From positions 1 to 64,000 of IMG/VR virus record IMGVR_UViG_3300035670_000085: 64,000 bases of DNA. One strand, 5' to 3'. This document shows, one piece after another, positions 27,448 to 54,673 of the stretch. The stretch is from a virus. The stretch's first letter is position 1. Each line of letters begins with the position of its first letter. The translations under genes were made by a program, and so were the position numbers. Below the pieces are notes generated by a model. The model had not been told where the DNA came from. It was given only the letters and a program-made list of their open reading frames with translations, and searched no databases.

Positions 27448-28425
27448 ATGTATGGATTAATTTATAAAGTAACAAATATTCAAAATAGAAAAGTTTACAT
27501 AGGACAAACTACTCGTTCTTTAGAAAAAAGAAAAAAAGAACATATTAAAGATGCAATAAACGAAAAATATGTAATACCTTTTCATAATGCTCTTAGAAAA
27601 TATGGTGCATATAATTTTAAATGGGAAATTCTTGGATATTGTAAAACAATAGAAGAATTAAATGATTCAGAAGAATCTTGTATTAATTTTTATCAAAGTG
27701 TAAATAAAATTTACGGATATAACGTGAAATTTGGTGGAAATAATTATACTTTATCTCAAGAAACAAAAGATAAAATAGGAAAAGCAAATAAAGGTAAATC
27801 AACGTGGACTAAAGGCCGAAAATTATCAGAAGAACATAGAAAAAATATTGGGTTAGGGAATTCAAATCCCACAGAAGAAACAAGACAAAAACACCGTAAT
27901 GCAAATTTAGGAAAACACCATCCCCAAAAAACTAAACAAAAACTTCGTGAAGCAAATTTAGGAAAAAAACAATCCGAAGAAACAATTAAAAAACGTAGTG
28001 AATCTTTAAAAAAACAAACTCCAGAAATGAAAGAAAAAAGAAGACGAAGCCTAACTGGAAAAAAACGTACTAATGAAGTTCGCCAAGCTATAAGTACCAG
28101 AATGAGGGGTGTAAAAAAATCTGAAGAACATAAACAACATATGAGAGAAGCAAATATCAAATATTTTATTAGTTCTGAAGATATGCAAAAAATATTAAAT
28201 AAAATTTTTATTGAAGGAATTACTATAAAAGATGTAGCAAAAGAATATAAAATTTCTTATAGCCCTTTGTATAAAAGGATTCAAGAGGTTATAAAAGATC
28301 AATCAGAAAAATATCCTTCTCTTAATAAAAAAACAGAAAAAACAAAAGAAAAAATAAGACAATCTGTTATTAATCACAATCAATTAAAAAAATTAAATCA
28401 AGCAATAATTGAATATATTTTTTAA
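27448..28425 (+). mobile_element. GIY-YIG homing endonuclease with NUMOD3 repeats
   Basis: GLIYKVTN..NRKVYIGQT, GYN, repeated GKK.SEE motifs. Confidence 0.9.
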
Positions 28426-35214: not shown

Positions 35215-35700
35215 ATGAGAAAATTAAAAACAAAAAAAGAAATAGATTGTTATATAAAGACATTAGAACACAAAGAACAAGTTGCAGATATTATGGATGT
35301 ATTTGCACAAGTTATTCGAAAAAGAGGTTTAACTCACGATAATTCTAAATTAGAAGATCCAGAATTTGAAGGATTTGTAGAATATACTCCATTATTGGCA
35401 CAAACGACTTATGGTAGTGAAGAATATCAAAAATATTTAAATGATTTAAAACCGACATTAGATGCGCATTATTCCCGAAATCGCCACCACCCGGAATTTT
35501 ATGCTAATGGTGTTCGTGATATGTCCCTTGTTGATCTTCTTGAAATGTTTGCAGATTGGTATGCTTCTTGTAAAAGACAAAATGATGGTAATATACGATT
35601 GTCTATTGAAAAGAATCGTGAAAGATTTGGATATTCAAAAGATTTAGAACAAATATTTATTAACACTATAGAACTTATAGAAAATCTCAAAGAGGAATGA
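35215..35700 (+). CDS. HD-domain protein (DUF5662-like)
   Basis: HK..V, HDNSK, HY.RNRHHPE, EM.ADW. Confidence 0.75.
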   Translation: MRKLKTKKEIDCYIKTLEHKEQVADIMDVFAQVIRKRGLTHDNSKLEDPEFEGFVEYTPLLAQTTYGSEEYQKYLNDLKPTLDAHYSRNRHHPEFYANGVRDMSLVDLLEMFADWYASCKRQNDGNIRLSIEKNRERFGYSKDLEQIFINTIELIENLKEE

Positions 35701-39564: not shown

Positions 39565-39849
39565 ATGAAACGTTATAAATCATTATTAGAAGATGATAAA
39601 AATAAACGATTTGCTTTACTTCTTTCTGATATGAAACATAGTCGTGGTTCATTTAAATATTTTGATACTGAAAAAGAAGCAGTTGATTTTGTTAAGAAAC
39701 TACACAGCCAAAATAAACTTATGAGATATGTAGAAATAGAATTGCTTGATAGAAGTATTAAAGATTATCAAAGTCCTAAATATAGTAGAGTATTGTGGGA
39801 TGGATTACATAATGAATTATATGTTAGAGGATATTTGGAGAGAATATAA
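39565..39849 (+). CDS. tagged putative internal head protein
   Basis: MKRYKSLLE. Confidence 0.7.
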   Translation: MKRYKSLLEDDKNKRFALLLSDMKHSRGSFKYFDTEKEAVDFVKKLHSQNKLMRYVEIELLDRSIKDYQSPKYSRVLWDGLHNELYVRGYLERI

Positions 39850-39868
39850 TAAATAAGAGGTTATCGTC

Positions 39869-40009
39869 ATGGGTAAAAATCCTTCAGAAGCAAATAAAAA
39901 AGAAACTCCTAAATGGAAAACAACTATAGTTATTTCTCATTATATAAAACCTAATGGGGCATGGGGAAAAAGAACTACAGAAATACGTGAAGAGGTTATT
40001 AAAAAATGA
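39869..40009 (+). CDS. 46-aa untagged ORF missed by the track
   Basis: GAGG RBS; MGKNPSE...VIKK; ATGA overlap with the next gene. Confidence 0.5.
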   Translation: MGKNPSEANKKETPKWKTTIVISHYIKPNGAWGKRTTEIREEVIKK

Positions 40010-40509
40010 GACGATATAAACCGCTGTTTGAAAAAGTTGATTTAGAAAAAAAAGATTATCATGTTAGAGAATGGGATGAAGATTCTCGTGATACATGGGA
40101 ATATCTTCTTTCTAAATATGAAAACTGGGATCAAGCTAATAAAGATGGTATGGGAAGTCTTTATAATACTTTAGAAAAAAGTTTTATAAGTAATGGTGAT
40201 GTTGCAAAGGAATTACTAAAATCTAATAGACAAAATAAAAATTATTTAAATGTTGGTGATGTTCTTTATTTTAAATATATAAACGCTTCAATAATGGGAA
40301 GAAATCCTTTGGATAATAAAGGTATAAAAGAGTTTAAAAAAAATGCATATGTAATTGTGACAGAAGTGAATTTAGAATCTAAAGTTTATGGGTTTAATAA
40401 AAGCAATAAAAACAAAACAATATTAGGAAATACTTTTTATTATAAAATAAGCGATATAAATGAGTTATTAGAAAAACGAGAAGGAAAATCAATAGAAGTA
40501 ATTTATTAA
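40006..40509 (+). CDS. tagged putative internal head protein
   Basis: MRRYKPLFE. Confidence 0.7.
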   Translation: MRRYKPLFEKVDLEKKDYHVREWDEDSRDTWEYLLSKYENWDQANKDGMGSLYNTLEKSFISNGDVAKELLKSNRQNKNYLNVGDVLYFKYINASIMGRNPLDNKGIKEFKKNAYVIVTEVNLESKVYGFNKSNKNKTILGNTFYYKISDINELLEKREGKSIEVIY

Positions 40510-40511
40510 TT

Positions 40512-40811
40512 ATGAAACGTTATAAAAAATTATTTGAATCACAAACTTATCATTCAATAGCTTACAGAGATATTGAAAATACAAGATATAAATCTATAAA
40601 ACCATATAGAGAATATCTTATTATTACTTCTGAAAGTAAAATAGAAAAAGATGGAAATATGATTTGTTATGATAACATTAAATTATATACTAAAGAAAAT
40701 TATGCATCTAAAAAAATATCTAACAAAATGATTTTAGTTGATGTAAAAAATATGTGCATTGATATTAAAAGAGACCATTGGATATTTAAAAATGAGGATA
40801 TAAATATATGA
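40512..40811 (+). CDS. tagged putative internal head protein
   Basis: MKRYKKLFE. Confidence 0.7.
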   Translation: MKRYKKLFESQTYHSIAYRDIENTRYKSIKPYREYLIITSESKIEKDGNMICYDNIKLYTKENYASKKISNKMILVDVKNMCIDIKRDHWIFKNEDINI

Positions 40812-41239
40812 AACGGTATAAACCCTTACTTAGAGAGGAAAATTCACTATCGCAATTAGATAAACCAGAATTAGTAGATAAATTATTTCAATATTTTAAA
40901 GAGAATCCGTATCCACTTGACCACGAAGGATTCCATAAATTTGCTGAATCTCTTGGTATGGAAGCAGATGATTTAGAAATCTATGGTTGGGCAATTATTA
41001 GCTGTTTTGTTACTGGTGGAAATTTTAATAAGTCTGGTAAGAAAGAAGAAGATTTTGATTCTAAAGAAATTGAGATTGGAATTGATATTGAAAAAGAGCA
41101 TACCGACTATACTAATGAAAATCCTGTTGTAAAACGTATTGCAAATTTTATGCAAAAAAGAATTGCAAAAGATCATCTTTCAGAATTTTCAAATTATTAT
41201 ACTTTGTTAAAAGAAATGGAAAAAAATGCAAAAAAATAA
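40808..41239 (+). CDS. tagged protein with DUF5661-like domain
   Basis: MKRYKPLLRE; G..IE.EH...IAKDHL.E...YY..L..ME. Confidence 0.7.
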   Translation: MKRYKPLLREENSLSQLDKPELVDKLFQYFKENPYPLDHEGFHKFAESLGMEADDLEIYGWAIISCFVTGGNFNKSGKKEEDFDSKEIEIGIDIEKEHTDYTNENPVVKRIANFMQKRIAKDHLSEFSNYYTLLKEMEKNAKK

Positions 41240-41286
41240 TAATATATACTAATAAATATATAACAATAAAAAAGAGGTAATTGATC

Positions 41287-41604
41287 ATGTATAGAAGTGT
41301 ATTTGAAGAAAGCAATGGTAAAAGAAAAATGAATGAAGCTGTAGTATTTTCTATTAGCACAATAGACGATGCTTTTGAAGCTATTCAAAAATGTGTTGCA
41401 TTGATAATTGAAAAGAAAAAATCCAGCATGGCTATGATGCTTCCTAGAATAGCTGAAGCAGTAATGAACGGAATTAAAGATGCACTTGGAAATATCTATA
41501 GTGATCCTAACAAAATTGAATCTGTTAAAAAACAAATAGTAGCTAAATTTATTCGTTTCTTTAAACAAGATGCAGTTAGTGCTCCAGAAGAACCAATGAT
41601 GTAG
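41287..41604 (+). CDS. degenerate-tag putative core protein
   Basis: MYRSVFEE...MNEA; own TACTAATA at 41247 and GAGG RBS. Confidence 0.6.
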   Translation: MYRSVFEESNGKRKMNEAVVFSISTIDDAFEAIQKCVALIIEKKKSSMAMMLPRIAEAVMNGIKDALGNIYSDPNKIESVKKQIVAKFIRFFKQDAVSAPEEPMM

Positions 41605-41612
41605 TATTAAGT

Positions 41613-41882
41613 ATGAAACGATACATTAGTATTTTTAAAGAATCTGGAACTGGTAATTACGCACCAAGTAGCATTCTTTTTAAAACAGATGAAGAGTTTA
41701 ATAGGGCAGTGGAATTGTTAAGTTCTCTTAATTTTCAATTTAAACCAGATTTCTATATAAGAAAAAATGGTAATATTTCTGGGTATAGTAAAAATTATTT
41801 AAGTTTTACATACTCTAAAGATTGGACTAAACTTGTTAAACTTCTTCAAAAAAATAATGTAGATTTCAAACAAATAAAATGA
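41613..41882 (+). CDS. tagged putative internal head protein
   Basis: MKRYISIFKE. Confidence 0.7.
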   Translation: MKRYISIFKESGTGNYAPSSILFKTDEEFNRAVELLSSLNFQFKPDFYIRKNGNISGYSKNYLSFTYSKDWTKLVKLLQKNNVDFKQIK

Positions 41883-41980
41883 GGCGATACAAACCATTAT
41901 TTGAATATATGACTCCTTCCGAAAGGAAAGGAGCTTTTCTACATGGTCAAACTAATTTAGGAAAGATGGTAATGAAATGA
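41879..41980 (+). CDS. 33-aa tagged micro-ORF missed by the track
   Basis: MRRYKPLFEYMTPSERKGAFLHGQTNLGKMVMK; ATGA-coupled at both ends. Confidence 0.65.
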   Translation: MRRYKPLFEYMTPSERKGAFLHGQTNLGKMVMK

Positions 41981-42216
41981 AAAGATACAAAAGTATATTT
42001 AAAGAATCAAAAGAAGATGTTATAAAACGAGCATTAAATTTTGCAGATTCTGGCTCATTTCCTGTTAATAGAAAAGTATTTCGTTTTATGATGTATTTAA
42101 ATGATGAACAATTTGATATTGAAGAAATTAAGCAATTAGCATGTGAATTCTATAAAATACATAGAAGTAAAGTAGAAGGAATATTTAAAGAAGTTGAAAG
42201 ATTAGAAAAAATATGA
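41977..42216 (+). CDS. tagged putative internal head protein
   Basis: MKRYKSIFKE. Confidence 0.7.
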   Translation: MKRYKSIFKESKEDVIKRALNFADSGSFPVNRKVFRFMMYLNDEQFDIEEIKQLACEFYKIHRSKVEGIFKEVERLEKI

Positions 42217-42884
42217 AAAGATACAAACAACTTTTTAAAGAAGATCATGAACATTGGATAGATATAAAATTTTCTGATATAGAAAAGTTGGAAGAAGAAC
42301 TTCATCTTGCAGATTTTAAAAAACATGCTGGTGCTTCTGATTTTACAAAAGATTGGATAGAAATAAGACGTAAGATAAAAGGACCAGGAAACAAATCAGC
42401 TAAATTACATTCACTAAAGGTAAATCGTAAGGACGATTACGTTATTTTTGTATTTAAATCATCACCAACATATTCCGGATTAGAAAAATCAGTCAATGTT
42501 AAATCTATGACATGGAATGGAAAAGTTAAAGCTTATACCGAAATGATAAAAATAAATGACTTCTTCAAATTGGCAGAAACTAAACCAGGATATGTTGAAA
42601 AAGAAATGACTTGGAAAGAAATAAAAGAAATTCTTTCTGTTGCGCCGATTTCGGTCTCCTGCAATTGCGGAAGTTTCACCTATCAAGGATTGTCTTATTA
42701 TTTGACACAATTAGAGGGAACAATTTTTCCAAATAATATAGAACCGAAGCGATGGAATAAATACCATGATAAAGGAAATGATATAGGATTGCTTTGTAAA
42801 CATTTATCAATGATTTTTAATAGCATAGATTTCTTTTTATCTAACTTTACAAGTATGATAAATAAATATATTCAGGGTAAATAA
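42213..42884 (+). CDS. tagged protein with SWIM-type zinc finger
   Basis: MKRYKQLFKE; VSCNC..F...LCKHL. Confidence 0.7.
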   Translation: MKRYKQLFKEDHEHWIDIKFSDIEKLEEELHLADFKKHAGASDFTKDWIEIRRKIKGPGNKSAKLHSLKVNRKDDYVIFVFKSSPTYSGLEKSVNVKSMTWNGKVKAYTEMIKINDFFKLAETKPGYVEKEMTWKEIKEILSVAPISVSCNCGSFTYQGLSYYLTQLEGTIFPNNIEPKRWNKYHDKGNDIGLLCKHLSMIFNSIDFFLSNFTSMINKYIQGK

Positions 42885-42885
42885 C

Positions 42886-43386
42886 ATGCCTTCACGGTCA
42901 GAGAGACAAAGAAATTTCATCTTTGCTAAACGCGGAGAATACAAAACCAAATCAGATACTCCAGAAGATTGGAAATGGGTGTGGAATGATGAATGGGAAA
43001 AAATAGAGGAGAGGTTTCCAATAAAACGATATAAACCATTGTTTGAATCAAATAAAATTATCTATTTTATCCGTGCAACAGATAAACAAGAAGTACAAAG
43101 TAAACATTATGGAGATTACTGGAGATTCTTCAAGTCCTTAAAAGATTTATCTAATTTAATAAAATCAAATCAATTATATGTTGCTCAAAAAGATAAAAAT
43201 GATCAATATATGATAATAGGACAAGGAAATATAGACGAACTTGAATTAAATTATTCTGAATTAAACGATGACTTTGATTCAAAAGAGATGCATTTTAAAT
43301 TCAAAGACTTATTCGATAAAAATTATACACCTTCCTCTAAAGTTCTTTATGCTGGAAAAATTGATTACGATTTAAAATTAAAATAA
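42886..43386 (+). CDS. fusion of a short MPSRSERQR.. module and an internally tagged module
   Basis: IKRYKPLFE at 43021. Confidence 0.6.
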   Translation: MPSRSERQRNFIFAKRGEYKTKSDTPEDWKWVWNDEWEKIEERFPIKRYKPLFESNKIIYFIRATDKQEVQSKHYGDYWRFFKSLKDLSNLIKSNQLYVAQKDKNDQYMIIGQGNIDELELNYSELNDDFDSKEMHFKFKDLFDKNYTPSSKVLYAGKIDYDLKLK

Positions 43387-43387
43387 T

Positions 43388-44536
43388 ATGAAAAGATATA
43401 AACCATTATTTAAAGAATCTATTCAATCAGAAAAAGCTATAGCAGAATTAGTTGATTTCGTTATAGATAAATTATCTAATAATATGATGAAAAAAATAAA
43501 TAATGGTGATTTTATTCCAGAAAAAAGATTTAATTTAAGAATGAGTTTTGATGAAAATAAATATTCAAATCCACCAGAAATATTAAAAGAATTTGTTAAT
43601 TTATTTTTATATGAATTTGATGTTATATTATCAAGTGATAAAGATAAAGCAAATGGTGTATATCAAAGTAAAAAAAATAGAATAGTATTATGGAATGTAT
43701 TATTTCCAAATACATGGACTAAAGATAATCCTCATTTTGAAGGAAAAAAAGAAATTAAAGATTATTTCAGAAGATATTCTAGAGGTACTCTAATTCATGA
43801 GTTTGCCCATGCTTATGACGATTTTATAAGTCGTGGAAAATATTTACCTAAAAAATATAAAGATGCCCCAGAAAGTCATGAAGACGAGAAGGGATGGAAA
43901 GATTACGCAAAACAAAATTTAGAAGTCAATGCAAGATATACTGATTGGATAAATGAACATCAAAAAGAAAGAATTACTTACACTTGGCCAGAATATGTAA
44001 AAGAATTTAAACAAGAATGGGGGATTAAATACTTAAATCCGGAACAATATCGAAGACTTATAAATAGACTATTTGCTCAATATAATGAACCACTACCAGA
44101 AGATTTTAAACTAGAAGTTTTAAATAGTTTATCCTTTAAATTATTTCATAAAGGATTTGAGAATAAGTTAAATGTTAATGATTTTATTCCAGAAGATAAA
44201 AGATGGAAAGATCAACTGACCAAAAAAGATATTTTTAATTATATGAAAAAATCTATACAGAATATTTTAACTGGAAAAGTTAAAGAATCTGAGATAAAAA
44301 ATCCAGCAATAATTGATAATAGATATGCTGGTTTAAAATCTATAAAATATAGTTTTGAATTGATTGATTCTATGGAAGAAAATCTTAAAAAACATGCAGA
44401 CAATCCAGATATTGTTAAAACAATTCAAAAACAAATTGATAAAGAATTAGCATATTATGAAGGATTTAAAAGAATATTTAAATTATCTGATGAAGATTTA
44501 AAACAGATTAATGATGTTATGATAAAATATTCATAA
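43388..44536 (+). CDS. tagged zincin metallopeptidase-like protein
   Basis: MKRYKPLFKE; TLIHEFAHAYD...Y....LEVNARY. Confidence 0.7.
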   Translation: MKRYKPLFKESIQSEKAIAELVDFVIDKLSNNMMKKINNGDFIPEKRFNLRMSFDENKYSNPPEILKEFVNLFLYEFDVILSSDKDKANGVYQSKKNRIVLWNVLFPNTWTKDNPHFEGKKEIKDYFRRYSRGTLIHEFAHAYDDFISRGKYLPKKYKDAPESHEDEKGWKDYAKQNLEVNARYTDWINEHQKERITYTWPEYVKEFKQEWGIKYLNPEQYRRLINRLFAQYNEPLPEDFKLEVLNSLSFKLFHKGFENKLNVNDFIPEDKRWKDQLTKKDIFNYMKKSIQNILTGKVKESEIKNPAIIDNRYAGLKSIKYSFELIDSMEENLKKHADNPDIVKTIQKQIDKELAYYEGFKRIFKLSDEDLKQINDVMIKYS

Positions 44537-44585
44537 TTTCTATTATATTGAAGAAATTATACTAATAAATATAAAGGTAATAAAT

Positions 44586-44837
44586 ATGAAAAGGTATAAG
44601 CCATTATTCGAATCCTCTCAAAGATTTTGTGCAATATATAAAGCACAAAATAATAAATGGTACCTAGCTCTTGCTGACGAAGAATACGGTACATCAGAAG
44701 ATGCCACTACTTACGGACCTTTTTCTAGTAAAGAGCAAGCTCATAGGTATTTGTTGAGAAATTTTTCAAATCCTGGTGGAATAATTGAGGATGGTTCTGG
44801 AGAACATTCAGTACCTCCCAGTGTTGTTAAGCCTTAG
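44586..44837 (+). CDS. tagged putative internal head protein
   Basis: MKRYKPLFE; TACTAATA at 44560. Confidence 0.7.
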   Translation: MKRYKPLFESSQRFCAIYKAQNNKWYLALADEEYGTSEDATTYGPFSSKEQAHRYLLRNFSNPGGIIEDGSGEHSVPPSVVKP

Positions 44838-44877
44838 ATCTACATAGACAATTCAAAAATAGAATAGGTATGTAATT

Positions 44878-45231
44878 ATGATATGTGAACTAATTTCTTT
44901 CAGTGCAGCAGAACTCAATACAGGAATAGATGTTATAAAAGATATAGAATTTATTTCTATAGTTAAAAATGATGCAGAAGCGCTTCCAAAAGTATATAGA
45001 CCAATTGAGATACGCTTTTCAAATGTAAGCGGTATTGCAGCAAATATTGATATTTTTTCTGATATCGAACATGCTGCTTATCTAACAACTCCAACTTTAT
45101 CTGATAAAATAACTATAGCTAATGGCGGTACATTGACATTAACCCCAACTAAAGATGCTATTACTAAAATAGTTGCTAAAGGTACAGCAGGACATTCTGG
45201 AAATTTAAATATTACAATAATAAAAGAGTAG
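44878..45231 (+). CDS. untagged beta-rich protein, paralog of 46906..47253
   Basis: Shared IE.IS..(K/R).DA.A..K.Y.PI.I...N...FSD.E...Y..TPT..D and C-terminal I.I.KE. Confidence 0.6.
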   Translation: MICELISFSAAELNTGIDVIKDIEFISIVKNDAEALPKVYRPIEIRFSNVSGIAANIDIFSDIEHAAYLTTPTLSDKITIANGGTLTLTPTKDAITKIVAKGTAGHSGNLNITIIKE

Positions 45232-45240
45232 GTGTAAAAA

Positions 45241-45537
45241 ATGAAAAGGTACAAAAGCTTATTTAAAGAAGATTCTACAGAATTTAATAATGATGATTTT
45301 GTTTATCAAGAATTAAAATTTAAAAAACAATTATCAAAAGAATTGAAATTACCTTATACTGGAAAATGGGCAAATCAAAATAAAGAACTTCCAATTTATT
45401 TTGATGATGCAGATATGGTGTCAATGTTAGATGATAAAACTATTTTTAAAAATGCTATAAATGGTAAGCATACATATGGAGAATTAAAAACATTTGTTAT
45501 AAACTTTATGAAAAAAAACACTCCTAATCTTATTTAA
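45241..45537 (+). CDS. tagged putative internal head protein
   Basis: MKRYKSLFKE. Confidence 0.7.
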   Translation: MKRYKSLFKEDSTEFNNDDFVYQELKFKKQLSKELKLPYTGKWANQNKELPIYFDDADMVSMLDDKTIFKNAINGKHTYGELKTFVINFMKKNTPNLI

Positions 45538-45552
45538 TAGAGGTAAAAAAAA

Positions 45553-45834
45553 ATGAAAAGATATAAAAGTGTTATTAGTAAAAATGAAATAAAATTAAAT
45601 GAATCTAAGTGGAGTGATGCTAATCTAAGCAGGTTCTTTTTTAGTGGTGAATATGATAATTATCAGCATGGGAATCCAAAGAAAGCAGCGCAGCAAATTT
45701 ATGATCTCACTGTTAATTATTTAGATAATATTGAAAAGAATCTAGAATTGGCAGGTTCATTTTTAGCACCAGCCATAAAAGATGAACTTGAAAAAATGTT
45801 AAAAAAGAATTTTAGTAGAATAAAAATAAAATGA
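45553..45834 (+). CDS. tagged putative internal head protein
   Basis: MKRYKSVISKNEIKLNE. Confidence 0.65.
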   Translation: MKRYKSVISKNEIKLNESKWSDANLSRFFFSGEYDNYQHGNPKKAAQQIYDLTVNYLDNIEKNLELAGSFLAPAIKDELEKMLKKNFSRIKIK

Positions 45835-46139
45835 AAAAATATAAATCATTATTTAAAGAATCTGAACAAAAAGCTAGTTACGATTTGGTAGCAAATCTTT
45901 ATAAAAAGGGTTCAAAATGGAGAACTATAGAGTGGGCAAATAATAATGATAAAGCAATAATATCTAATCTATCTCCAACTCTTTTAAAAAAAGGAGAGAA
46001 TTGTAATATTGAGATGATGAAAGGTTCTTCTCAATTTAATCTCATAATTTCATGGAAAAACTCTAGCAATGTCATATTAGGATGCTCACTTTCTTTTGAT
46101 AATGAAAAAGAAGCACAGAAAGAAGGGTGGAGTATATGA
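45831..46139 (+). CDS. tagged putative internal head protein
   Basis: MKKYKSLFKE. Confidence 0.7.
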   Translation: MKKYKSLFKESEQKASYDLVANLYKKGSKWRTIEWANNNDKAIISNLSPTLLKKGENCNIEMMKGSSQFNLIISWKNSSNVILGCSLSFDNEKEAQKEGWSI

Positions 46140-46363
46140 AGCGTTATACACCAATAAAACTACAAGAACAAGATGAAGAAGAATTACATCCACGAGTTCT
46201 TGAAATACTCGATTGTTTCAAAAACGAAGATTTTAATAATTTTTCAAAACGTCTTGATTTTGCATCAAAGCTACTTGAAATTATAGTATTATCAAAGGAT
46301 GTTCGTATAAGAAGACTCATAAAGAAAATCTGTCAGGCAATAAAAGAAATAGAGGAGGAATAA
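46136..46363 (+). CDS. tagged putative internal head protein
   Basis: MKRYTPIKLQE; start reassigned (GGAG RBS, ATGA coupling). Confidence 0.65.
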   Translation: MKRYTPIKLQEQDEEELHPRVLEILDCFKNEDFNNFSKRLDFASKLLEIIVLSKDVRIRRLIKKICQAIKEIEEE

Positions 46364-46365
46364 AA

Positions 46366-46608
46366 ATGAAAAGATATAAGAGTATTTTAAAAGAAGCACA
46401 ACCAATTCATATCGGAAAAGTTACTGTTTTTGTTCATTTGAAAATCAAAGAAGAAGAAGTAAGTAAGATTATAGATCTATTTGATAATATAGATAGCGAT
46501 CAAAAAATTCAAAATTTTCAATATTTAGCTGGAAATATGAAACTTAAAAATTTAGCAAAATTTATTGATAATAAAAATATTTATCTTTTAAGAATTTCAG
46601 AGGAATAA
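46366..46608 (+). CDS. tagged putative internal head protein
   Basis: MKRYKSILKE. Confidence 0.7.
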   Translation: MKRYKSILKEAQPIHIGKVTVFVHLKIKEEEVSKIIDLFDNIDSDQKIQNFQYLAGNMKLKNLAKFIDNKNIYLLRISEE

Positions 46609-46610
46609 AA

Positions 46611-46859
46611 ATGAAAAGATATAAAAGCATTATTAAAGAAGCTGAATTTTCAAAAGGAAACATCCAGGCAATAATTGCCGCATTTAAAGAATGTGGATTT
46701 AAAGTTGAAGGGAAAGAAGGCGAACAGAAAGAAGGAATTTTTTATGCTTCTTTTGAGAAAGGAAAAGAAATTCTCTCTATAGAGGATGCTATAGAAAACT
46801 TACAAGCATTAAAAAAAAACGATAGAAAAAACACAGGATATAGATTTGAAATAGTATAG
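46611..46859 (+). CDS. tagged putative internal head protein
   Basis: MKRYKSIIKE. Confidence 0.7.
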   Translation: MKRYKSIIKEAEFSKGNIQAIIAAFKECGFKVEGKEGEQKEGIFYASFEKGKEILSIEDAIENLQALKKNDRKNTGYRFEIV

Positions 46860-46905
46860 CACGACAATCCAATCAGATTTGATATATCCGACTGAGAGAG
46901 TAATT

Positions 46906-47253
46906 ATGATAACTGAAAAAATTGCAATAGTTAACGCAGACCTCGTAGCGGGAAAAGCGGTTAAAACAATAGAAGATATATCTTTAACTAGATTAGATGC
47001 ACAAGCTTCATCGAAACAATATATTCCTATCAAAATAAAATGTACTAATAACACTAATGTTTCTGGCAATTTTATTGCATTTTCTGATATGGAATATATA
47101 CAATATATAGCAACACCAACAATTACTGATTTAGTTCCTTTAGCAATCGGTGAATCGTTTGAATATATTCCAACAAATCAAAAAATGACAACTATTGTGG
47201 TCGAGTCTGCTGTTTTTACTGGAACCTATGATATAGAAATTTGGAAAGAATAA
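46906..47253 (+). CDS. untagged beta-rich protein, paralog of 44878..45231
   Basis: Start reassigned to MITEKIAIV; aligns with 44878. Confidence 0.6.
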   Translation: MITEKIAIVNADLVAGKAVKTIEDISLTRLDAQASSKQYIPIKIKCTNNTNVSGNFIAFSDMEYIQYIATPTITDLVPLAIGESFEYIPTNQKMTTIVVESAVFTGTYDIEIWKE

Positions 47254-47272
47254 ATTTTGAAGTTTAAATAAA

Positions 47273-47503
47273 ATGAAAAGGTACAAGAGTGTTATTAAGG
47301 AATCTGGGGATAATTATGAGAATTTTGGCATCTCCTTATCAAAAATGTATAGTAAATCGACAAATATGACGCAATTAGCCAATATGATTTCAAATAGTAT
47401 TGGAGAAGAGATCGGAGATAGCGAGGATTTAATAAAGGTATCTAAAACTCTTATTGGTAATTTACAAGACCTTATAAATGATGCAAAATCTTCAAGAGAA
47501 TAA
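47273..47503 (+). CDS. tagged putative internal head protein
   Basis: MKRYKSVIKE. Confidence 0.7.
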   Translation: MKRYKSVIKESGDNYENFGISLSKMYSKSTNMTQLANMISNSIGEEIGDSEDLIKVSKTLIGNLQDLINDAKSSRE

Positions 47504-47505
47504 AT

Positions 47506-47667
47506 ATGATAATTGAAAAAATTGCAATAGTTAGCTTTGAGAGCGACCCAAAAACGTATAGTGAAATGCGTAAGCTTGTGGACGAACATTTCTCCGAAAA
47601 GGGTGGAGGTTGGTCTAGCGGTTTTAGGAATTTTATAAAATACGTAAGGGGAGAGGAAGTATATTAA
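47506..47667 (+). CDS. 53-aa chimeric ORF whose start duplicates 46906
   Basis: MIIEKIAIVSFESDPKTY...; first 30 nt nearly identical to 46906-46935. Confidence 0.45.
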   Translation: MIIEKIAIVSFESDPKTYSEMRKLVDEHFSEKGGGWSSGFRNFIKYVRGEEVY

Positions 47668-47746
47668 AAAAAGCGGAAACGACAACTATGAAAAATAGGA
47701 AAGAGTGCGTATAAAAAAATTTTAAACAACGAGGAAGGGAAATAAG

Positions 47747-48112
47747 ATGAAAAGATACAAATCAATTTTAAACGAAGAATCACAATTTTCTAAAAATTTA
47801 CATAAGTATTTAAGACATTATGATAATCTTGAAACTTATAGCGAGTTAATTAAATTAATAAAAACTATAAATTATAATAAAAAAATAGAAACAGATGAAG
47901 CAAAACAAAATGTTTATAAAGCTGTAATTTTATTGCTTCTTGGATATACTGGTTCAGAAGTGAGTAATAAACGTGATTATCTTTCTAAAGAATGGGAGAA
48001 AGAGGAAGAAAGTAAGAACGAAACTCCAGATGAATTTATGAAAAGAATGAAAATGGTGCCTTATAAAGAAAATTTGTCATGCAATAAAAGAAATGGAGGA
48101 GGAATAAAATGA
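47747..48112 (+). CDS. tagged putative internal head protein
   Basis: MKRYKSILNE. Confidence 0.7.
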   Translation: MKRYKSILNEESQFSKNLHKYLRHYDNLETYSELIKLIKTINYNKKIETDEAKQNVYKAVILLLLGYTGSEVSNKRDYLSKEWEKEEESKNETPDEFMKRMKMVPYKENLSCNKRNGGGIK

Positions 48113-48420
48113 AACGATATAGAAGTATTTTTAAAGAAGAAAAAAATTTACCTAATATGGATATTGATTCTTTTGTTAAAGAATTAATGAAAAATAGAAA
48201 TTTAAAAGATACTTTTAAATCGTATACTATTGATGAATCTTATGAAAATCCAGATGGAGATTTTAATTCTGTTATTTATTTAGAAGATTTTATAACTGAA
48301 AGACCAAGTTATGATTTTGTGAATCATTTACGCAGGATTGTTAATAAAAATGAAGATATTATTGATAGTAATATTGGTCGGGACAAATATAGAGTTGTTT
48401 TAAATATAACCCATAAATAA
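48109..48420 (+). CDS. tagged putative internal head protein
   Basis: MKRYRSIFKE. Confidence 0.7.
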   Translation: MKRYRSIFKEEKNLPNMDIDSFVKELMKNRNLKDTFKSYTIDESYENPDGDFNSVIYLEDFITERPSYDFVNHLRRIVNKNEDIIDSNIGRDKYRVVLNITHK

Positions 48421-48435
48421 AAAGGTGGAAATAAA

Positions 48436-48639
48436 ATGAAACGATACAAATCGATACTTAAAGAAGGAATGAGATACAATACTAGCTATTTTGAAGCAGG
48501 AAAAGATTTAAGATCAGCAAAAAAAATAGATACTGTAATTGGTGTTTTAGAAGAAATGATTATGGAATTAAAAGCTTGGAAAAAAGAAGGAGCTAAAGAA
48601 GTTCAAGGAAATAAAAATGAATTTATTCCATTATGGTAA
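48436..48639 (+). CDS. tagged putative internal head protein
   Basis: MKRYKSILKE. Confidence 0.7.
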   Translation: MKRYKSILKEGMRYNTSYFEAGKDLRSAKKIDTVIGVLEEMIMELKAWKKEGAKEVQGNKNEFIPLW

Positions 48640-48657
48640 TAGTGTAGGTAAAAGAAA

Positions 48658-50724
48658 ATGGCTAAAATAAAATTAGTTGAAAAGATAGGAATTAATGTTC
48701 CTATTGAAAATATAAAAGTTTTTGATAAAGTAAAGATAGTAGAAGCTGCCGGAAAGAATTACGAGGCTATAGCAGTAATTGAGAAAGTACCTTTTACTAG
48801 ATTTGGCAGTGTTAATGATAACAATAGATATTATCCACGTAAACTTTGGGAAAAAGTTATAAAAGAAGGAGTATGTGAAGGAAGCTCTCTTTATACAAAC
48901 CATGCAGAAAATGAAACAGATGTATCTAAAAAAGCAGGTATCTGGCATAATGCATTTATTGACGATAAGAATAAAGTATGCAGAGCAGATCTTTATCTTA
49001 TAGGACCAAACGGACAACTCTTTCTCGATGCTTTAAAAGCTGGTTCAAAAGGGGAGGGTATCAGTTCAGTTGGCTACGGTGAGTTTGAAGATAGATACGA
49101 AGAATTAAAAGAATTTGGTAATATAGGACATGATGTAAAAGTAGTACGATGGGACACGTATGATGGAGAGTCTTATGGCGACTGGGTACATCAGCCGTCT
49201 CAAAACGTATTTGCAACATTAGAAAATATTAAAGAAAATAATGAAAACTCTTCTAATTTAAATGAAAGTTATACTAATAATAGTAAAGCTACTAATGATA
49301 AATTAGATGAAAATATAAAATTACAAGAGAATAAAAAAGAGGTTTATATGGATAAGTCGATATTGAAGAATATGGTATTGAATGAAATAAAACGTTCAAA
49401 AAATAATCCTAATCTTCTTGAAGCAATTCAAGGATTGAAAGAGATTGACACTGCTGGTGATTCTGAACTTAATAATAGAGTAAATGATGCAATTGAAACT
49501 CTCACAACTAAACTTGAAGAAAGTAAAAGTAATGCAGAAAAACAGCTCAATGAAAGCACAACTAAATTGAATGAAATGACTGCTAAATATAATAAACTTG
49601 TTGAGAATTATAAAAAAGCTACTTCTAAAGTTGTAGAATTGACAGAATCAACAAAACTTATGGAATCCGATATTAAATGCTTGGTAGAAGATTCTAATCT
49701 CCGTGATAATGATATTAAATGTCTTACAGAAGACCGTAAAGTTATGATATCCGATCTTAAAAAAATGATTGAAGATCGTAAAGCAATGAGAAAAGATATT
49801 AATGTTCTTACTACTAAATTGAAAGAAGCTGAAGAAGTTATTGGTCAACAAGAAGATGAACTTGAAAAACGTGGATTTGAATTTGAAGAAGATGATGAAG
49901 AAGTAGAATTTGATGCGGAAGGAAATCCTATAGTAAAAGAGCCTGTAACAGAAGAAGAAATGCCTGCACCTGAAGTGCTTCCAGAAACCCCGGCAGAAAT
50001 AAAAGAAGAAGGTGACGAACAAGAACTTCCTATGCAAATCGATCCTCTTCCAACTGAACCTGCAATGGTTGAAGAAGAAGATGAAATGATGAATCTTGAT
50101 TTTGAAGATGAAGAAGAAGTTGAAGAACTTGAAGAAGAAGATGCTTTTGATGCATTTGCTCCTGCAGGTGAAGAAATGGATGAGCCTATGGTAGAAGAAG
50201 ATGAGATGGAAATGCCTGTTGAGGAAATGCCAGTTGAAGAAGCTCCGGCAGAAGAAGTGAAAGAAGAAGAAATGCCTGCACCTGAAACTCTTGACACTCC
50301 TCCTGCACCGGCTCCTGCTCCTATAGCCATAGAAGAACCTAAACCAGAAGAAACTAAAATGGTTGAGGAAGACGAAGAAGAAAAAGAAGATGAAGAAGAA
50401 GTTGAAGAACCAGAAGAAGAAAAAGAAGAAATGAAAGAATCTGTAATTAAGTTTTCATGGGAACCAAAAAAAGAAGTTAAAAAAGCTCCTGTAAAAACTA
50501 AAATCGTAGAAAATAATATTAAGGCTGATCTTAAAAAATTCTATGAAAGTCAGATTGCAAAGAATCCTTCTGTAAAAGCTATTGAAAAACAAATCATGTC
50601 TGCTAAATCTTTGTTAGAGGCCTTTGATATGGTTGATGTATTCAAGAGCAGAAAGTCAGATAAACTTGTGAAAGTTACTGAAAGTAAAAAATCTGATGGT
50701 AATGTGATAAAATTTAAATTCTAA
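48658..50724 (+). CDS. prohead protease (T4 gp21-like) fused to coiled-coil/acidic scaffold
   Basis: N.N.RYYP, TNH, GP.G, GISSVGYG, DWVHQPS; then coiled coil with many L-x-E sites and an E/P-rich tail. Confidence 0.8.
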   Translation: MAKIKLVEKIGINVPIENIKVFDKVKIVEAAGKNYEAIAVIEKVPFTRFGSVNDNNRYYPRKLWEKVIKEGVCEGSSLYTNHAENETDVSKKAGIWHNAFIDDKNKVCRADLYLIGPNGQLFLDALKAGSKGEGISSVGYGEFEDRYEELKEFGNIGHDVKVVRWDTYDGESYGDWVHQPSQNVFATLENIKENNENSSNLNESYTNNSKATNDKLDENIKLQENKKEVYMDKSILKNMVLNEIKRSKNNPNLLEAIQGLKEIDTAGDSELNNRVNDAIETLTTKLEESKSNAEKQLNESTTKLNEMTAKYNKLVENYKKATSKVVELTESTKLMESDIKCLVEDSNLRDNDIKCLTEDRKVMISDLKKMIEDRKAMRKDINVLTTKLKEAEEVIGQQEDELEKRGFEFEEDDEEVEFDAEGNPIVKEPVTEEEMPAPEVLPETPAEIKEEGDEQELPMQIDPLPTEPAMVEEEDEMMNLDFEDEEEVEELEEEDAFDAFAPAGEEMDEPMVEEDEMEMPVEEMPVEEAPAEEVKEEEMPAPETLDTPPAPAPAPIAIEEPKPEETKMVEEDEEEKEDEEEVEEPEEEKEEMKESVIKFSWEPKKEVKKAPVKTKIVENNIKADLKKFYESQIAKNPSVKAIEKQIMSAKSLLEAFDMVDVFKSRKSDKLVKVTESKKSDGNVIKFKF
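49348..50724 (+). CDS. nested in-frame scaffold protein (internal start MDKSILK)
   Basis: TACTAATA at 49272; AAGAGG RBS before in-frame ATG 49348 (Met231). Confidence 0.6.
   Translation: MDKSILKNMVLNEIKRSKNNPNLLEAIQGLKEIDTAGDSELNNRVNDAIETLTTKLEESKSNAEKQLNESTTKLNEMTAKYNKLVENYKKATSKVVELTESTKLMESDIKCLVEDSNLRDNDIKCLTEDRKVMISDLKKMIEDRKAMRKDINVLTTKLKEAEEVIGQQEDELEKRGFEFEEDDEEVEFDAEGNPIVKEPVTEEEMPAPEVLPETPAEIKEEGDEQELPMQIDPLPTEPAMVEEEDEMMNLDFEDEEEVEELEEEDAFDAFAPAGEEMDEPMVEEDEMEMPVEEMPVEEAPAEEVKEEEMPAPETLDTPPAPAPAPIAIEEPKPEETKMVEEDEEEKEDEEEVEEPEEEKEEMKESVIKFSWEPKKEVKKAPVKTKIVENNIKADLKKFYESQIAKNPSVKAIEKQIMSAKSLLEAFDMVDVFKSRKSDKLVKVTESKKSDGNVIKFKF
49951..50286 (+). repeat. 24-nt direct repeat encoding EEEMPAPE in the acidic scaffold tail
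   Basis: GAAGAAGAAATGCCTGCACCTGAA at 49951 and 50263. Confidence 0.7.
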
Positions 50725-50735
50725 TAAAAAATAAA

Positions 50736-50770
50736 CTCAAAGGAGGAATTCAAACTCCTTTGAGATTTCT
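50736..50770 (+). terminator. hairpin/terminator after the scaffold gene
   Basis: CTCAAAGGAG / CTCCTTTGAG. Confidence 0.65.
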
Positions 50771-50785
50771 TTAAAGATAATAAAA

Positions 50786-51001
50786 ATGAAACGATATAAA
50801 TCATTATTCAAAGAAGAATTTCCTCTTAATTACAAACAAGGAATGTTTCTTAAAAACATTATAGAGGAATATCTTATAGATATTGGAAAAGAAGAAAAAA
50901 GAAAAGAAGCGTTTACTATAATTTTACATGCAATATCTAACCATAAACTTGATTTTGATAAAGATAAAATTTTATTGTTTTTACAGAAAAAATATAATTA
51001 A
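50786..51001 (+). CDS. tagged putative internal head protein between scaffold and capsid genes
   Basis: MKRYKSLFKE. Confidence 0.7.
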   Translation: MKRYKSLFKEEFPLNYKQGMFLKNIIEEYLIDIGKEEKRKEAFTIILHAISNHKLDFDKDKILLFLQKKYN

Positions 51002-51024
51002 AAAATTCATTTTTAAATAATTTA

Positions 51025-51206
51025 TACTAATAAATATAAGTTGAAGATATTCTATCAAAAGATAGTTTGTATAAAAAAGACGATTCAAAAGAATCAAATG
51101 CAATAGTAGTTCTCAAAAGAGATCATTAATAGTGCCTTTCAGAAGAAAGATGTTTCGATGTTCAATTAAAATTTAAAATTAAGAAAATAATTTCAAAAGA
51201 GGAAAT
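51025..51206 (+). promoter_or_regulatory. late promoter and 5' UTR of capsid gene with five TC-A[AG]AA-GA hairpins
   Basis: TACTAATA at 51025; hairpins at 51052, 51082, 51111, 51136 and 51191. Confidence 0.7.
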
Positions 51207-52715
51207 ATGAGTAATCAAATGAAACTCCAAGAGGAGTTAAAAGAGCGTAACGAACGCTTGAATAAAATAACTGAAAACTGGATGAGGACTGAATTTACAA
51301 AAGGCGATGTAATTCCTAAAACTGGAAAAACTTATCGTTCCATGCTTCAAGAAGTTGCAGCAAGGAATCCTCATCATGCAAGATGTATCGCTGCTGCAGC
51401 TCAGCAAGAATACAACCACATGAAAAAAAGTAAAATGAATGAAACTACGATTTCTACTGCTCTTCAAACGCACCCGGAAAACGTAATAAAAGTAATCATG
51501 CTTGGTATGGCTAATTCAATTCGTCCTATGGCATTCGTAGAATGGCCAATGACAACTATTGATGATGCTATGTATTGGGTAGATCGTACATATGAACAAT
51601 CAATTCGTGGCGCAACTGCTAACGATCTGATTTATTACAGCTTGAATGGAAGGTATGCTGGGGAATCTAAAGAAGAAACAGATGCAACTGTAACTTCATG
51701 TCTCCCGAACGTACCGAATAGCGCAACTCAAAACTTTACGTTGACCCTTACTCTCAATCCTATTATCATGAAAAAAACGTATATTACGTTGAATGATACT
51801 CTGATTGGTTATGACAGTCTTGGAACTGGTGTTATTACCCGTCCAGGGAATTCAACTGTATTGACAACCAATACAACTAATAATAATATCGATTATACGA
51901 ATGGTATTGTAAAACTTGGTTTTACTTCTGCTCCCGCAACTGGTGCTGTTATAAAAATAGCATATGAGTGGGATTCTGAAAATACAACTCTGTTTGCTGC
52001 AAATCAAGGAACAGTAAGTGTTAATCTTCGGAAAGATCGTTTTAATGCTCGTCCAATGCCGTTAGGATACAAATTCACGGATATGGCTGGCCTTACTCTT
52101 ATGTCAACTGGTCTTGGTGACATTCATGAAATGCTTATTTCTGCAGTAGCAGATGAGCATGCAAAAGCTCGGGATGCTCGTGCAATTCAGCTCGCATACC
52201 AACTCGCAAAAGTTAATGGTACTTATACATTTGATTGCGATTTCCGTGTAGCTGGTGAAGTTCAAGCGAAATCACACGTCCAGAAAGTTGTAGCAAAAAT
52301 AGATTCTATCGGTGGTTTGATTCAGGACGATATTAAAAAAGGTCAGATCAACGTAGCTATCGCTGGTTCACAAGCACTTTCTATTCTCCGGATGCATGAC
52401 AACTGGAAAGATGATAATTCAATGCCTCGTCAAGGATGCTATAAAGCAGGTTCTGTAAACGGTATTGATGTATTCTATGCACCTGCAACTACCGGAATTA
52501 TTGGAACAGAAGACATTATTCTTTCCTATAAAAACCCGCAAGAAAATGCAGACGTTGCTCTTGCTTTCGGTAACTTTACTGAAATCAGTGCAGAATTACG
52601 TTATCCAAATTTTACAACTGAAGGATCGTTGGCAACTGTTGAAGACGTGAAAATAATTGAGCCTAAGTTTCTCCGTCATCTTCAGCTTTCAAATACTTCG
52701 GCTGTTCTTTCCTAG
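51207..52715 (+). CDS. major capsid protein (distant T4 gp23-like) with insertion domain
   Basis: Follows protease/scaffold; WPM motif, AGS.NG..V(F/Y), ILSYK; strongly biased codon usage; strong terminator. Confidence 0.8.
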   Translation: MSNQMKLQEELKERNERLNKITENWMRTEFTKGDVIPKTGKTYRSMLQEVAARNPHHARCIAAAAQQEYNHMKKSKMNETTISTALQTHPENVIKVIMLGMANSIRPMAFVEWPMTTIDDAMYWVDRTYEQSIRGATANDLIYYSLNGRYAGESKEETDATVTSCLPNVPNSATQNFTLTLTLNPIIMKKTYITLNDTLIGYDSLGTGVITRPGNSTVLTTNTTNNNIDYTNGIVKLGFTSAPATGAVIKIAYEWDSENTTLFAANQGTVSVNLRKDRFNARPMPLGYKFTDMAGLTLMSTGLGDIHEMLISAVADEHAKARDARAIQLAYQLAKVNGTYTFDCDFRVAGEVQAKSHVQKVVAKIDSIGGLIQDDIKKGQINVAIAGSQALSILRMHDNWKDDNSMPRQGCYKAGSVNGIDVFYAPATTGIIGTEDIILSYKNPQENADVALAFGNFTEISAELRYPNFTTEGSLATVEDVKIIEPKFLRHLQLSNTSAVLS

Positions 52716-52804: not shown

Positions 52805-54610
52805 TTATGGTTTGTATTCAAAAACATAATTACCACAATCCCAAATTCTATCCCAACCATTTTGTTGCATATTTTCCCACTCTGTTAACTCTTGATTATA
52901 AAATTCTAGTAGATTTTTGAGTTTATGTTTTTGAAATTTAATACGAGAATATAAATTTATATAATCTTGCGTATAGAAATAATTAGGAGAGGATTCATTT
53001 ATAAGAATGAAATTATTTTTAAGATATACGTTTCCAATACTAAATCGTTTATCTGCATATGATATAAGTGATGTAGAATAGTTTTGAGTAAAATATTTTA
53101 AGCATTTAGAAAATCCACCAATAACAGATATATTTAATTGAGAAGAAAATCGAATTAATTCATATTTATGTTTTTGTTTCTTATCAAATCTTGGTTTAGA
53201 AAATGAACAAACTTGAACTAGTTCATTATTAAAAAATAATCCAATATTTATACTTGCAATAATTCCTCCTTGTATGTGAGTTCTATTTAAAAATTCAATT
53301 GTAGTTGCATTATCTATTTCTTTTATAATACATTTCCTTGCATATATTTTGTTTTCAGATATTCCTATTTTAGTAAGGATTATCGATTTTACAATATCTT
53401 TTTTTTCTATCCATTCTTTATCCCATATATGAATAACTTGAATATTTTTTTCTTTAAAGAAATTAGTTTTAATTAAGTGATAATTTTGTCTTTTATTGCC
53501 CGCAATTTCACTATGATAATATATGCCATTTAATTCAATACCAATATTTTTTTCTGGTATATAAATATCAAGTTCATGATGATGCTTTCCTTTATAATAA
53601 AATCTTTTATTTGGTACTATAGAAATATTTAATTGTTTTAACCAATCTTTAATTTCATTTTCGATTTTAGAGGTATGATATTTAGGAGAAAAGCAATGCG
53701 TACAGCGTGGAATTTTTCCATCTCTTAATACAAAAGAAAATTCTTGATTACAAGTAAGACATAAAAATTTATAAGATTTTAAATTACCTTTATATTCTTC
53801 AATAGTAAAAAGAGGTTTAACATGTGTAAGATTTAAAATTACTCTTTGATAATATTTAGTATAATGTGTATGTTTACTTTTTTCAATAACTTCTGGATTT
53901 TGAGAAGGAAAATCAACTCCACGTTTTAATTGATTTGTTTCTTTCATTTTAGTTTCATTATATGCATTAACAGAACCATGAAGTTTCATATTAGTATCTT
54001 GTCTTTTTCTAATAATTTCTTTCCATTCATCTTCTGATTTATTTAATAATCCTTCACTTATTGCCTTACCATTACTCCCCATTCCATATTTGTCATTACA
54101 TGTTTCAATTCTTTTCTCAGAATTGTTATAATTTTCATCCCCATATCGTTCTTTTTTTATTTCCTTGTTCTTTATAGTAGCCCTCTCGTAAGCATTCAAT
54201 CCATTTTCATCAACAGAATTTATTTTATTATTGTGTTTCTTTTGAGAAATTTCTAAAAGCTCCGATTCATTTTTTGATTTCCAAGTTTCTGCTGCTTTAT
54301 CATATCCTGGATTTCCTCTGTCTTTTCGGGTTGCATGACTTTTTTTATTACGAGCTTTAATCATAGTATCATAATCTGAATCATAATTTTCTCGTTTTCT
54401 TTTTTCTTTACATTTACCATTTTTACAATAATGATTTTTTAGAAAACAACTCACAGATTTTATGATAAGAGTATTACACGGCGTGTGGATATATTCTATT
54501 TGTTTTGTGTTTAAATGGATAAGTTTATATTCATCAGTCAGTTCTAATTTTTCAATTAAAATTAAAGCTTTTTCAATTTTAAATGCAGTATGTTTTGCTA
54601 ATTCTTTCAT
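52805..54610 (-). mobile_element. free-standing homing endonuclease (Hef-like; KYG repeats, Zn finger, Vsr-like nuclease, C-terminal YARKC...IWDCG domain)
   Basis: ELDIYIPEKNIGIELNGIYYHS, IHIWD.EW, ELIRFSS, ISYADKR; start reassigned downstream of the promoter at 54617-54646. Confidence 0.8.
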
Positions 54611-54673
54611 ATATATAATATACAAAATATCTAGAAAAAATTAACAACTTTTTTCAGAAATTTATAAAAAATA

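Follow-up and report, generated by a model that had tools for sequence, protein, structure and literature searches.

The stretch of DNA considered here, hereafter the window, is the first 64 kb (64,000 nucleotides) of a 99,896-bp virus record (IMG/VR record IMGVR_UViG_3300035670_000085; GC content ~27%) of an uncultured, T4-related phage. At positions 39565-48639, its + strand carries an array of ~27 small genes, the starts of which often overlap the preceding stop codon (ATGA). Twenty of these genes begin with a strict form of one short N-terminal peptide, here called the tag; one further gene begins with a degenerate form, and another holds the tag internally. The array is followed directly by a gene for a prohead protease-scaffold fusion, and the tag resembles the capsid-targeting sequence (CTS) on the internal proteins of T4, which makes it a candidate signal for packaging proteins into the phage head.

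The tag was counted by listing open reading frames (ORFs) and by a six-frame motif scan. In the whole record, 28 ORFs on the + strand start with M-K-R-Y-K-[S/P]-[L/I/V]-[F/L/I]-(x)-E, which amounts to 16% of the ORFs, or about one in six. The window holds 23 of the 28, plus the degenerate and the internal copy: 20 ORFs with N-terminal M[KR][KR]Y lie within 39565-48639, and three start outside the array at 8044, 26258 and 50786. Five more follow past the window, at 77383, 92089, 98671, 99018 and 99500. An earlier, sequence-only reading of this DNA, which had counted 21 array ORFs (including the degenerate copy at 41287) and the same three outliers, is thus confirmed, as is its length range of 33-382 residues (median, 98). 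Tyrosine occupies position 4 in every copy (28/28), lysine position 5 in 23/28, serine or proline position 6 in 25/28, and hydrophobic residues fill positions 7 (Leu, Ile or Val, 27/28) and 8 (Phe, Leu or Ile, 27/28). Most copies have Glu at position 9 or 10; together with the hydrophobic residues at 7 and 8, this means that both length variants of the tag end in hydrophobic-x-Glu. The bodies that cleavage after the tag would leave have a median of ~90 residues and mixed charge, and one copy of each would sum to 363 kDa.

The whole-genome motif search proposed in the sequence-only reading finds the tag far above chance: 20 genomes generated by a second-order Markov model contain 0 tagged ORFs, against 27 observed. 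In a greedy set of 168 non-overlapping ORFs, tags are present on 26 of the 110 on the + strand and on none of the 58 on the - strand. The Tyr-centred core is ~38 times denser in the first 16 residues of proteins than elsewhere; its internal matches number eight, two of which are the joint in the product of 42886-43386 and a site in the capsid propeptide (see below). A hydrophobic-x-Glu triplet ending at position 9-10 occurs in 80 of 117 tagged ORFs versus 35 of 241 control ORFs. Without their first 11 residues, no two tagged proteins match each other by BLASTP at E<0.01, so the earlier claim that no common sequence follows the motif is borne out. The same holds for the synonymous variation that it described at Arg, Tyr and Ser: Arg3 is encoded by five codons from both families (AGA, CGT, CGA, CGG and AGG), Ser6 by TCN and AGY, and Tyr4 by TAT and TAC, and the DNA upstream of the tagged genes differs from gene to gene. 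Because Arg and Ser switch codon families and the bodies lack BLASTP similarity, it is the peptide that is selected; the tag is a genuine feature, under selection at the peptide level.

All members of the array are encoded on the + strand. The first four tagged ORFs specify proteins of 94 (39565-39849), 167 (40006-40509; no Pfam family), 99 (40512-40811) and 143 residues (40808-41239); the last carries a DUF5661 domain (Pfam E 1.1e-10), and its orthologues in relatives keep the tag. The degenerate copy follows (41281-41604, 107 residues) and reads M-Y-R-S-V-F-E-E after a TTG or ATG start (41281/41287), so that Tyr, the hydrophobic pair and Glu are retained while the first residues differ. Next come tagged proteins of 89 (41613-41882), 33 (41879-41980), 79 (41977-42216) and 223 residues (42213-42884). 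The 223-residue protein belongs to a family present in nearly all relatives, in which the tag is often degenerate (Tyr-Lys retained, Glu lost); its predicted fold is poor (predicted local distance difference test score, pLDDT, 59) and matches nothing among solved structures. The 166-residue product of 42886-43386 has a different design, in which a 45-residue N-terminal module is followed by an internal tag (nt 43021-43047; codons 46-54, with ATA in place of ATG) and then by the body. The module itself (42886-43020, +), of the form M-P-x-x-S-x-x-Q ... W-x-W, is recurrent: it is also found in P0054, in P0113 and at 3218-3571 of L009, and it either leads into an internal tag or occurs by itself on small phage proteins.

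The second part of the array opens with the longest tagged protein (43388-44536, 382 residues), which contains a zincin-like HEFAH motif and has no Pfam or PHROG match. It is followed by tagged ORFs for proteins of 83 (44586-44837, starting 26 nt past a promoter-like motif), 98 (45241-45537), 93 (45553-45834), 102 (45831-46139), 75 (46136-46363), 80 (46366-46608), 82 (46611-46859), 76 (47273-47503), 121 (47747-48112), 103 (48109-48420) and 67 residues (48436-48639). The 93-residue protein lacks Glu at position 9/10, and its next L-x-E ends at residue 17; the orthologue of the 75-residue protein in the close relative L050 adjoins the protease gene. Two untagged paralogues of 117 and 124 residues lie inside the array (44878-45231 and 46879-47253, +). 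They have no PHROG match, and ORFs whose N-termini resemble theirs, judged by eye and not by alignment, occur in the same neighbourhood in L001 and L003.

Outside the array, a tagged ORF of 71 residues (50786-51001, +) lies between the protease-scaffold and capsid genes and is kept in close relatives. Another, of 191 residues (8044-8619, +), is embedded in a UvsX/SbcC module and has a tagged orthologue in one relative, and a third encodes 196 residues (26258-26848, +). An acidic protein of 134 residues (19427-19831, +), preceded by its own copy of the promoter-like motif, contains three tandem internal tag cores without Glu (Y-K-S-L-F-D, Y-K-P-I-F-G and Y-K-S-V-M-D). It is possibly related to the tagged proteins: by the T4 rule that Asp stops cutting but leaves targeting intact, it could be an uncleavable, multivalent tag protein.

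The domains that the sequence-only reading had assigned to the tagged proteins fared unevenly. DUF5661 (40808) stands; the nucleotidyltransferase match of 8044 is weak and below the Pfam cut-off; the zincin (HEFAH in 43388) and the SWIM-like domain (a Cys/His pattern in 42213) are seen in the sequence only; and the ADP-ribosyltransferase (ART) fold is a structure-similarity lead only, for 99018 outside the window. The SWIM reading is further weakened by the lack of conservation of the Cys residues in relatives. In the second cluster, the product of 98671 is a SprT-like zincin (Pfam E 2.5e-11). Such cargo types (SprT-like and the ART-fold lead) fit injected proteins, and the packaged T4 protein Alt is itself an ADP-ribosyltransferase processed by gp21 (PMC9026906). 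Of the idea of a library of more than 20 effectors, the use of the tag on many unrelated proteins is supported; at least four of these proteins (8044, 40808, 42213 and 92089), conserved throughout the clade, may have a core or structural role instead.

The capsid protein has 49 metagenomic homologues. A single-sequence scan of IMG/VR returned no relatives, whereas a profile scan yielded 16 loci with a capsid identity of 37-42% and a GC content of 25-32%. The search for the tag in relatives, which the sequence-only reading had suggested, was positive throughout: several ORFs starting with M-x-[K/R]-Y are found in all 16. Where enough upstream sequence is available, the tagged ORFs form arrays next to the protease-scaffold gene: gene-by-gene maps of seven loci place them directly upstream of it, and in L009 and L015 nearly all genes of this upstream stretch are tagged or carry a register-shifted Tyr-Lys core. 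Whole records of the relatives contain 2-17 strict tag DNA matches versus 0-1 in the reversed control. Across IMG/VR, the strictest tag DNA pattern has no match, and the looser pattern M-K-R-Y-K-x-x-F-x-E identifies 28 stretches, about half of them in the clade. The two residues after Tyr-Lys follow a dialect particular to each genome (here S/P followed by L/I; in L001, R followed by Q/E; in L009 and L015, S followed by K), which fits one genome-specific reader of all tags. In the cultured-phage collection, one remote capsid match was found and none for the protease or the DUF5661 cargo; the matching phage, Xanthomonas phage phiXF1, has no such array.

Orthologues of 8044, 40808, 42213 and 92089 keep the tag, and internal tags recur as well. 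A 92089-like body in L005 makes up the second module of its protein, behind an internal tag, and in P0054 and P0074 internal tags stand ahead of bodies that are separately tagged elsewhere. Metagenomic DUF5661 proteins share the design of 42886-43386 (45-residue module, tag, body), and some have two tandem tags inside a larger protein. Distant DUF5661 homologues lack this tag, and several start instead with peptides near the T4 CTS pattern. Since DUF5661 has other N-termini outside the clade, the tag was joined to pre-existing domains, and the DUF5661 domain seems to move in company with head tags specific to each lineage. In metagenome contigs whose capsid protein is 93% identical, the tagged genes next to the protease are a different set, a further tagged gene precedes the capsid gene, and homing endonucleases have inserted. 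In the close relative L050, ORFs whose DNA resembles a GIY-YIG gene of the window flank the protease and capsid genes (816-1547 and 4031-4774). The window itself contains two GIY-YIG/NUMOD3 homing-endonuclease genes (25422-26255 and 27448-28425, +).

The gene directly after the array (48658-50724, +) encodes a protein of 688 residues that has no Pfam or PHROG match by sequence. Its residues 1-190 adopt the fold of T4 gp21, the prohead protease, and are conserved in ten clade members, in which His82 and Ser136 are invariant. The best PDB entry for a profile of this N-terminal domain is T4 gp21 (5jbl, E 1.5e-3); the AlphaFold model (pLDDT 72, >80 over most of the domain) has 5jbl as its sole Foldseek match (E 5e-8, probability 1.00, template modelling score 0.70); and hhalign against T4 gp21 gives a probability of 88.6% (E 2.6e-6). 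The hhalign alignment pairs His82 and Ser136 with the T4 catalytic His and Ser, and it also pairs an N-x-R-x-Y-P-K segment and an L-L-I-E site near the N-terminus, which the T4 literature regards as a likely autocleavage site (PMC9026906). From about residue 230 to 688, the protein is coiled-coil, very acidic and scaffold-like, and the whole protein contains 49 hydrophobic-x-Glu sites versus 31 expected. Protease and scaffold are fused here and in 11 of the 16 relatives, where an upstream gene for 589-746 residues aligns over the protease domain. The linker that joins the two parts contains a copy of the promoter-like motif (49270-49285), upstream of an in-frame Met231; a separate scaffold-only product may arise from this nested start.

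The major capsid protein (51207-52715, +) is of the gp23 type, scoring 25.3 bits in Pfam Gp23 against a cut-off of 24.4 bits. Its Glu79, part of an [L/M/I]-x-Glu triplet (M-N-E here), is invariant in 19 homologues and sits just N-terminal to the conserved mature part, and five of the nine hydrophobic-x-Glu sites of the protein fall within residues 1-79. By sequence comparison, the propeptide would end at the Glu79 site; T4 gp23 is cut after L-T-E65 (PMC5694885). Capsid residues 41-49 (51327-51353, +) resemble the tag (K-T-Y-R-S-M-L-Q-E) and lie in an insertion limited to the phage of the window and its three closest homologues. A portal-like protein is encoded upstream of the array (33292-35211, +); it was identified as a language-model search lead and has no Pfam, PHROG or PDB sequence match. 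The earlier placement of the array between portal and protease genes is confirmed on the protease side and putative on the portal side. The resulting order (portal-like gene, array, protease-scaffold, capsid) mirrors that of T4 genes 20, 67, 68, 21, 22 and 23. Directly 3' of the portal-like gene lies a gene for a DUF5662 protein (35215-35700, +; Pfam E 4.7e-35).

The + strand holds ~18 copies of a promoter-like motif, TATACTAATAAATATA. The capsid, portal-like and terminase-like genes each have one ahead of them, and so do the tagged clusters at 41247, 44560, 77347 and 98645. In and beside the array, its copies lie at 41245-41260, at 44558-44573 and, before the capsid gene, at 51023-51038 (all +). 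The late-type promoters earlier placed at 41247 and 44560 stand as motif copies shared with the capsid gene and as putative late promoters.

Elsewhere in the window, the terminase-like ORF (29278-31755) contains an intein-like insertion that scores below the Pfam cut-off, and the gene at 52805-54625 (-) has weak, sub-threshold nuclease-related matches only. An Hsp20/alpha-crystallin domain protein is encoded at 19889-20497 (+; Pfam E 8e-13). An astacin-family metalloprotease, unusual in a phage (18717-19379, +; Pfam E 6.5e-34), lies behind a copy of the promoter-like motif; it was considered as the tag protease and rejected, as it carries a lipoprotein-type signal peptide.

The closest known system is that of T4. 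The T-even internal proteins form a diverse set with only the CTS in common (PMC3012670), and the first 10 residues of T4 IPIII suffice for packaging (PMC9026906). By mutagenesis, targeting by the T4 CTS was traced chiefly to residues 4 and 7, and its processing to residues 8 and 10; with Asp as residue 10, cutting stops but targeting does not (PMC9026906). In the T4 record, IPII and IPIII start with MKTYQEFIAE and IPI with a related peptide. The tag shares with this CTS its length of about 10 N-terminal residues, its presence on otherwise unrelated proteins, the hydrophobic-x-Glu end, the identity of residues 1, 2, 4 and 10, and the hydrophobic character of 7 and 8; positions 4, 7, 8 and 10, those mapped in T4, are the most conserved in the tag here. 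Moreover, the gp21-type proteases of the two phages are homologous, both capsid proteins are of the gp23 type, and the T4 capsid propeptide holds W-K-P-L-L-E, which is near the tag form Y-K-P-L-[F/L]-E. The differences are also considerable. T4 has three internal proteins plus Alt, compared with 28 genes here; protease and scaffold are the products of separate genes 21 and 22 in T4 but are fused here; the tag consensus here has Arg3, Lys5 and Ser/Pro6; and internal tags serve as the joints of fusion proteins in a phage known from sequence alone. The T4 internal protein (ip) genes, furthermore, lie far from the head cluster, whereas the tagged genes are mostly gathered in one array. The sequence-only reading had drawn the T4 analogy from the CTS and from core genes 67 and 68 between genes 20 and 21; the likeness of the tag and that gene position hold, but the ip genes themselves are not located there.

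Taken together, the shared N-terminus is likely to be a T4-type CTS system, expanded from three or four proteins to 16% of the genes. The earlier core reading of a T4-type CTS on many unrelated proteins is supported by the gp21-fold protease, the gp23-like capsid protein, the agreement with the positions mapped in T4 and the conservation in the clade, and also by the promoter-like motif common to the tagged clusters and the capsid and portal-like genes. By inference, the tagged proteins would be packaged, cleaved and ejected and may have anti-defence or host-takeover roles. In the proposed sequence of events, the tagged proteins would be made together with the head proteins, and Tyr4 and the hydrophobic residue at position 7 would dock onto the scaffold part of the protease-scaffold protein as the prohead core forms. 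The gp21-type protease would then cut after the Glu of the tag-ending hydrophobic-x-Glu, and the mature proteins would remain in the head with the DNA, probably to be delivered to the next host. Internal copies of the tag would act as cleavable joints of fusion proteins.

Several points weigh against this interpretation. The link to gp21 is remote (identity 16-19% in the structural alignment and 25% by hhalign), and substrate specificity cannot be read from such homology. The hydrophobic-x-Glu triplet is short and common in Glu- and Lys-rich proteins, and Glu is missing at position 9/10 in a few tags (45553 and several 42213 orthologues). The arrangement in an array has no T4 precedent, since the T4 ip genes lie outside the head cluster. 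That TATACTAATAAATATA is a late promoter is inferred only from the genes that it precedes, and the tagged gene at 8044, located in a recombination module, has no copy of the motif upstream on the + strand.

The strongest rival, although unlikely, is that the head protease, or some other virion part, uses the tag for docking or substrate recognition while the tagged proteins finish elsewhere than in the capsid. They could instead be activated in the cytoplasm by cleavage, be attached to the outer head or serve as temporary core or scaffold parts that are degraded and expelled. Several tagged families are indeed clade-wide, as would be expected of structural or assembly proteins, and some relatives have a protease-scaffold protein that itself starts with a tag-like peptide; in addition, the T4 core proteins gp67 and gp68, encoded in the same portal-protease position, are largely degraded (PMC9026906). 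Most bodies, however, are small, unrelated and quickly exchanged among close relatives, unlike assembly parts, and the enzyme-like cargo (SprT-like, ART-fold lead) resembles known injected proteins.

It is decidedly improbable that the tag is a leader for another system, whether an enzyme that modifies proteins, a chaperone, or a pathway for degradation or secretion. A partner enzyme could hide in this genome, most proteins of which have no recognisable family. Nevertheless, no radical-SAM/SPASM or other modifying enzyme was found in Pfam and PHROGs among ~60 ORFs, in which small ORFs were not covered exhaustively, and Pfam scans of the remaining large ORFs gave no alternative partner for the tag. 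The tag also lacks the hydrophobic core of a signal peptide, its end matches both the conserved capsid maturation site and the T4 cleavage rule, and the arrays always adjoin the protease-scaffold gene.

Very little probability attaches to a likeness at the level of nucleic acid, that is, a shared translation-initiation region or a homology block for cassette shuffling with a functionless peptide. Codons 1-5 are rich in A and in many cases the same (ATG AAA AGA TAT AAA), and the array turns over quickly; T4-type phages are reported to shuffle genes by means of short, conserved regulatory cassettes (PMC2839356). Against this stand the changes of codon family at Arg and Ser while the residue stays, the persistence of the amino-acid pattern at 37-42% capsid-protein identity, the internal in-frame copies and the differing upstream regions. 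Equally remote is a single paralogous family with bodies diverged beyond recognition and the N-terminus as its last remnant, which would suit the tandem layout on one strand and the similar small sizes but not the distinct families and folds among the bodies (DUF5661, SprT-like, ART-fold lead) or the other N-termini of DUF5661 homologues outside the clade.

Parallels can also be found in other protein-loading systems. Encapsulin cargo-loading peptides are short terminal peptides that send diverse cargo inside an HK97-fold shell; they differ in being usually C-terminal and uncleaved and in binding the shell directly, with no protease, DNA or delivery. In the giant phages phiKZ, 201phi2-1 and SPN3US, many head-internal proteins are cut after Glu by a gp21-related protease (gp175/gp245), the motif being small-residue-x-Glu, and the propeptides are thought to target the prohead (PMC5694885). 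These propeptides are mostly >100 residues long and are not one shared short tag; in SPN3US, ~8 proteins are processed, and P3 is Ala, Ser or Gly rather than Leu, Phe or Ile. The N-terminal 30 residues of P1 DarB suffice to bring a foreign protein into the capsid, and the Dar cargo protects against host restriction (PMC9024508). The P1 system differs in its unrelated head lineage, a signal known from one protein only, incorporation that depends on stepwise Dar partners, and the lack of a shared, cleavable tag family. Finally, the polyvalent proteins of phages and conjugative elements, described by Iyer, Aravind and co-workers, tie SprT-like zincin and ADP-ribosyltransferase domains to proteins co-injected with DNA (PMC7824862); in that case a single giant protein combines the domains, whereas here they are found on separate small tagged proteins.

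The principle is already known from T4. Distinctive here are its scale, a tandem array next to a gene that fuses protease and scaffold, internal tags serving as joints, and conservation in a deep uncultured clade with genome-specific dialects. A literature search found no description of large CTS arrays, and searches for the tag string and DUF5661 returned nothing relevant. A bolder proposal, which we hold tentatively and at slightly less than even chances, is that this clade of uncultured, AT-rich T4-superfamily phages has a readable packaging code: any protein or module that follows aromatic-Lys-x-x-hydrophobic-(x)-Glu would enter the prohead and be released by cleavage, as much as one sixth of the genome would form a rapidly exchanged library of injected proteins, and the code would be ancestral to the T4 CTS and to W-K-P-L-L-E in the T4 capsid propeptide. 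In that case, sequence alone could serve to predict the injected proteome of many T4-related phages.

Were the CTS interpretation correct, it would supply a sequence rule that lists the proteins carried into the host, a hard-to-find class that includes anti-restriction and takeover factors such as T4 IPI* and Alt. The ~25 small tagged proteins described here, together with hundreds in relatives, would form a candidate set for counter-defence screens, and the tag would become a second, naturally diversified portable signal for loading foreign proteins into capsids. It would also mean that the T4 packaging signal is ancient and supports dozens of cargoes rather than three or four.

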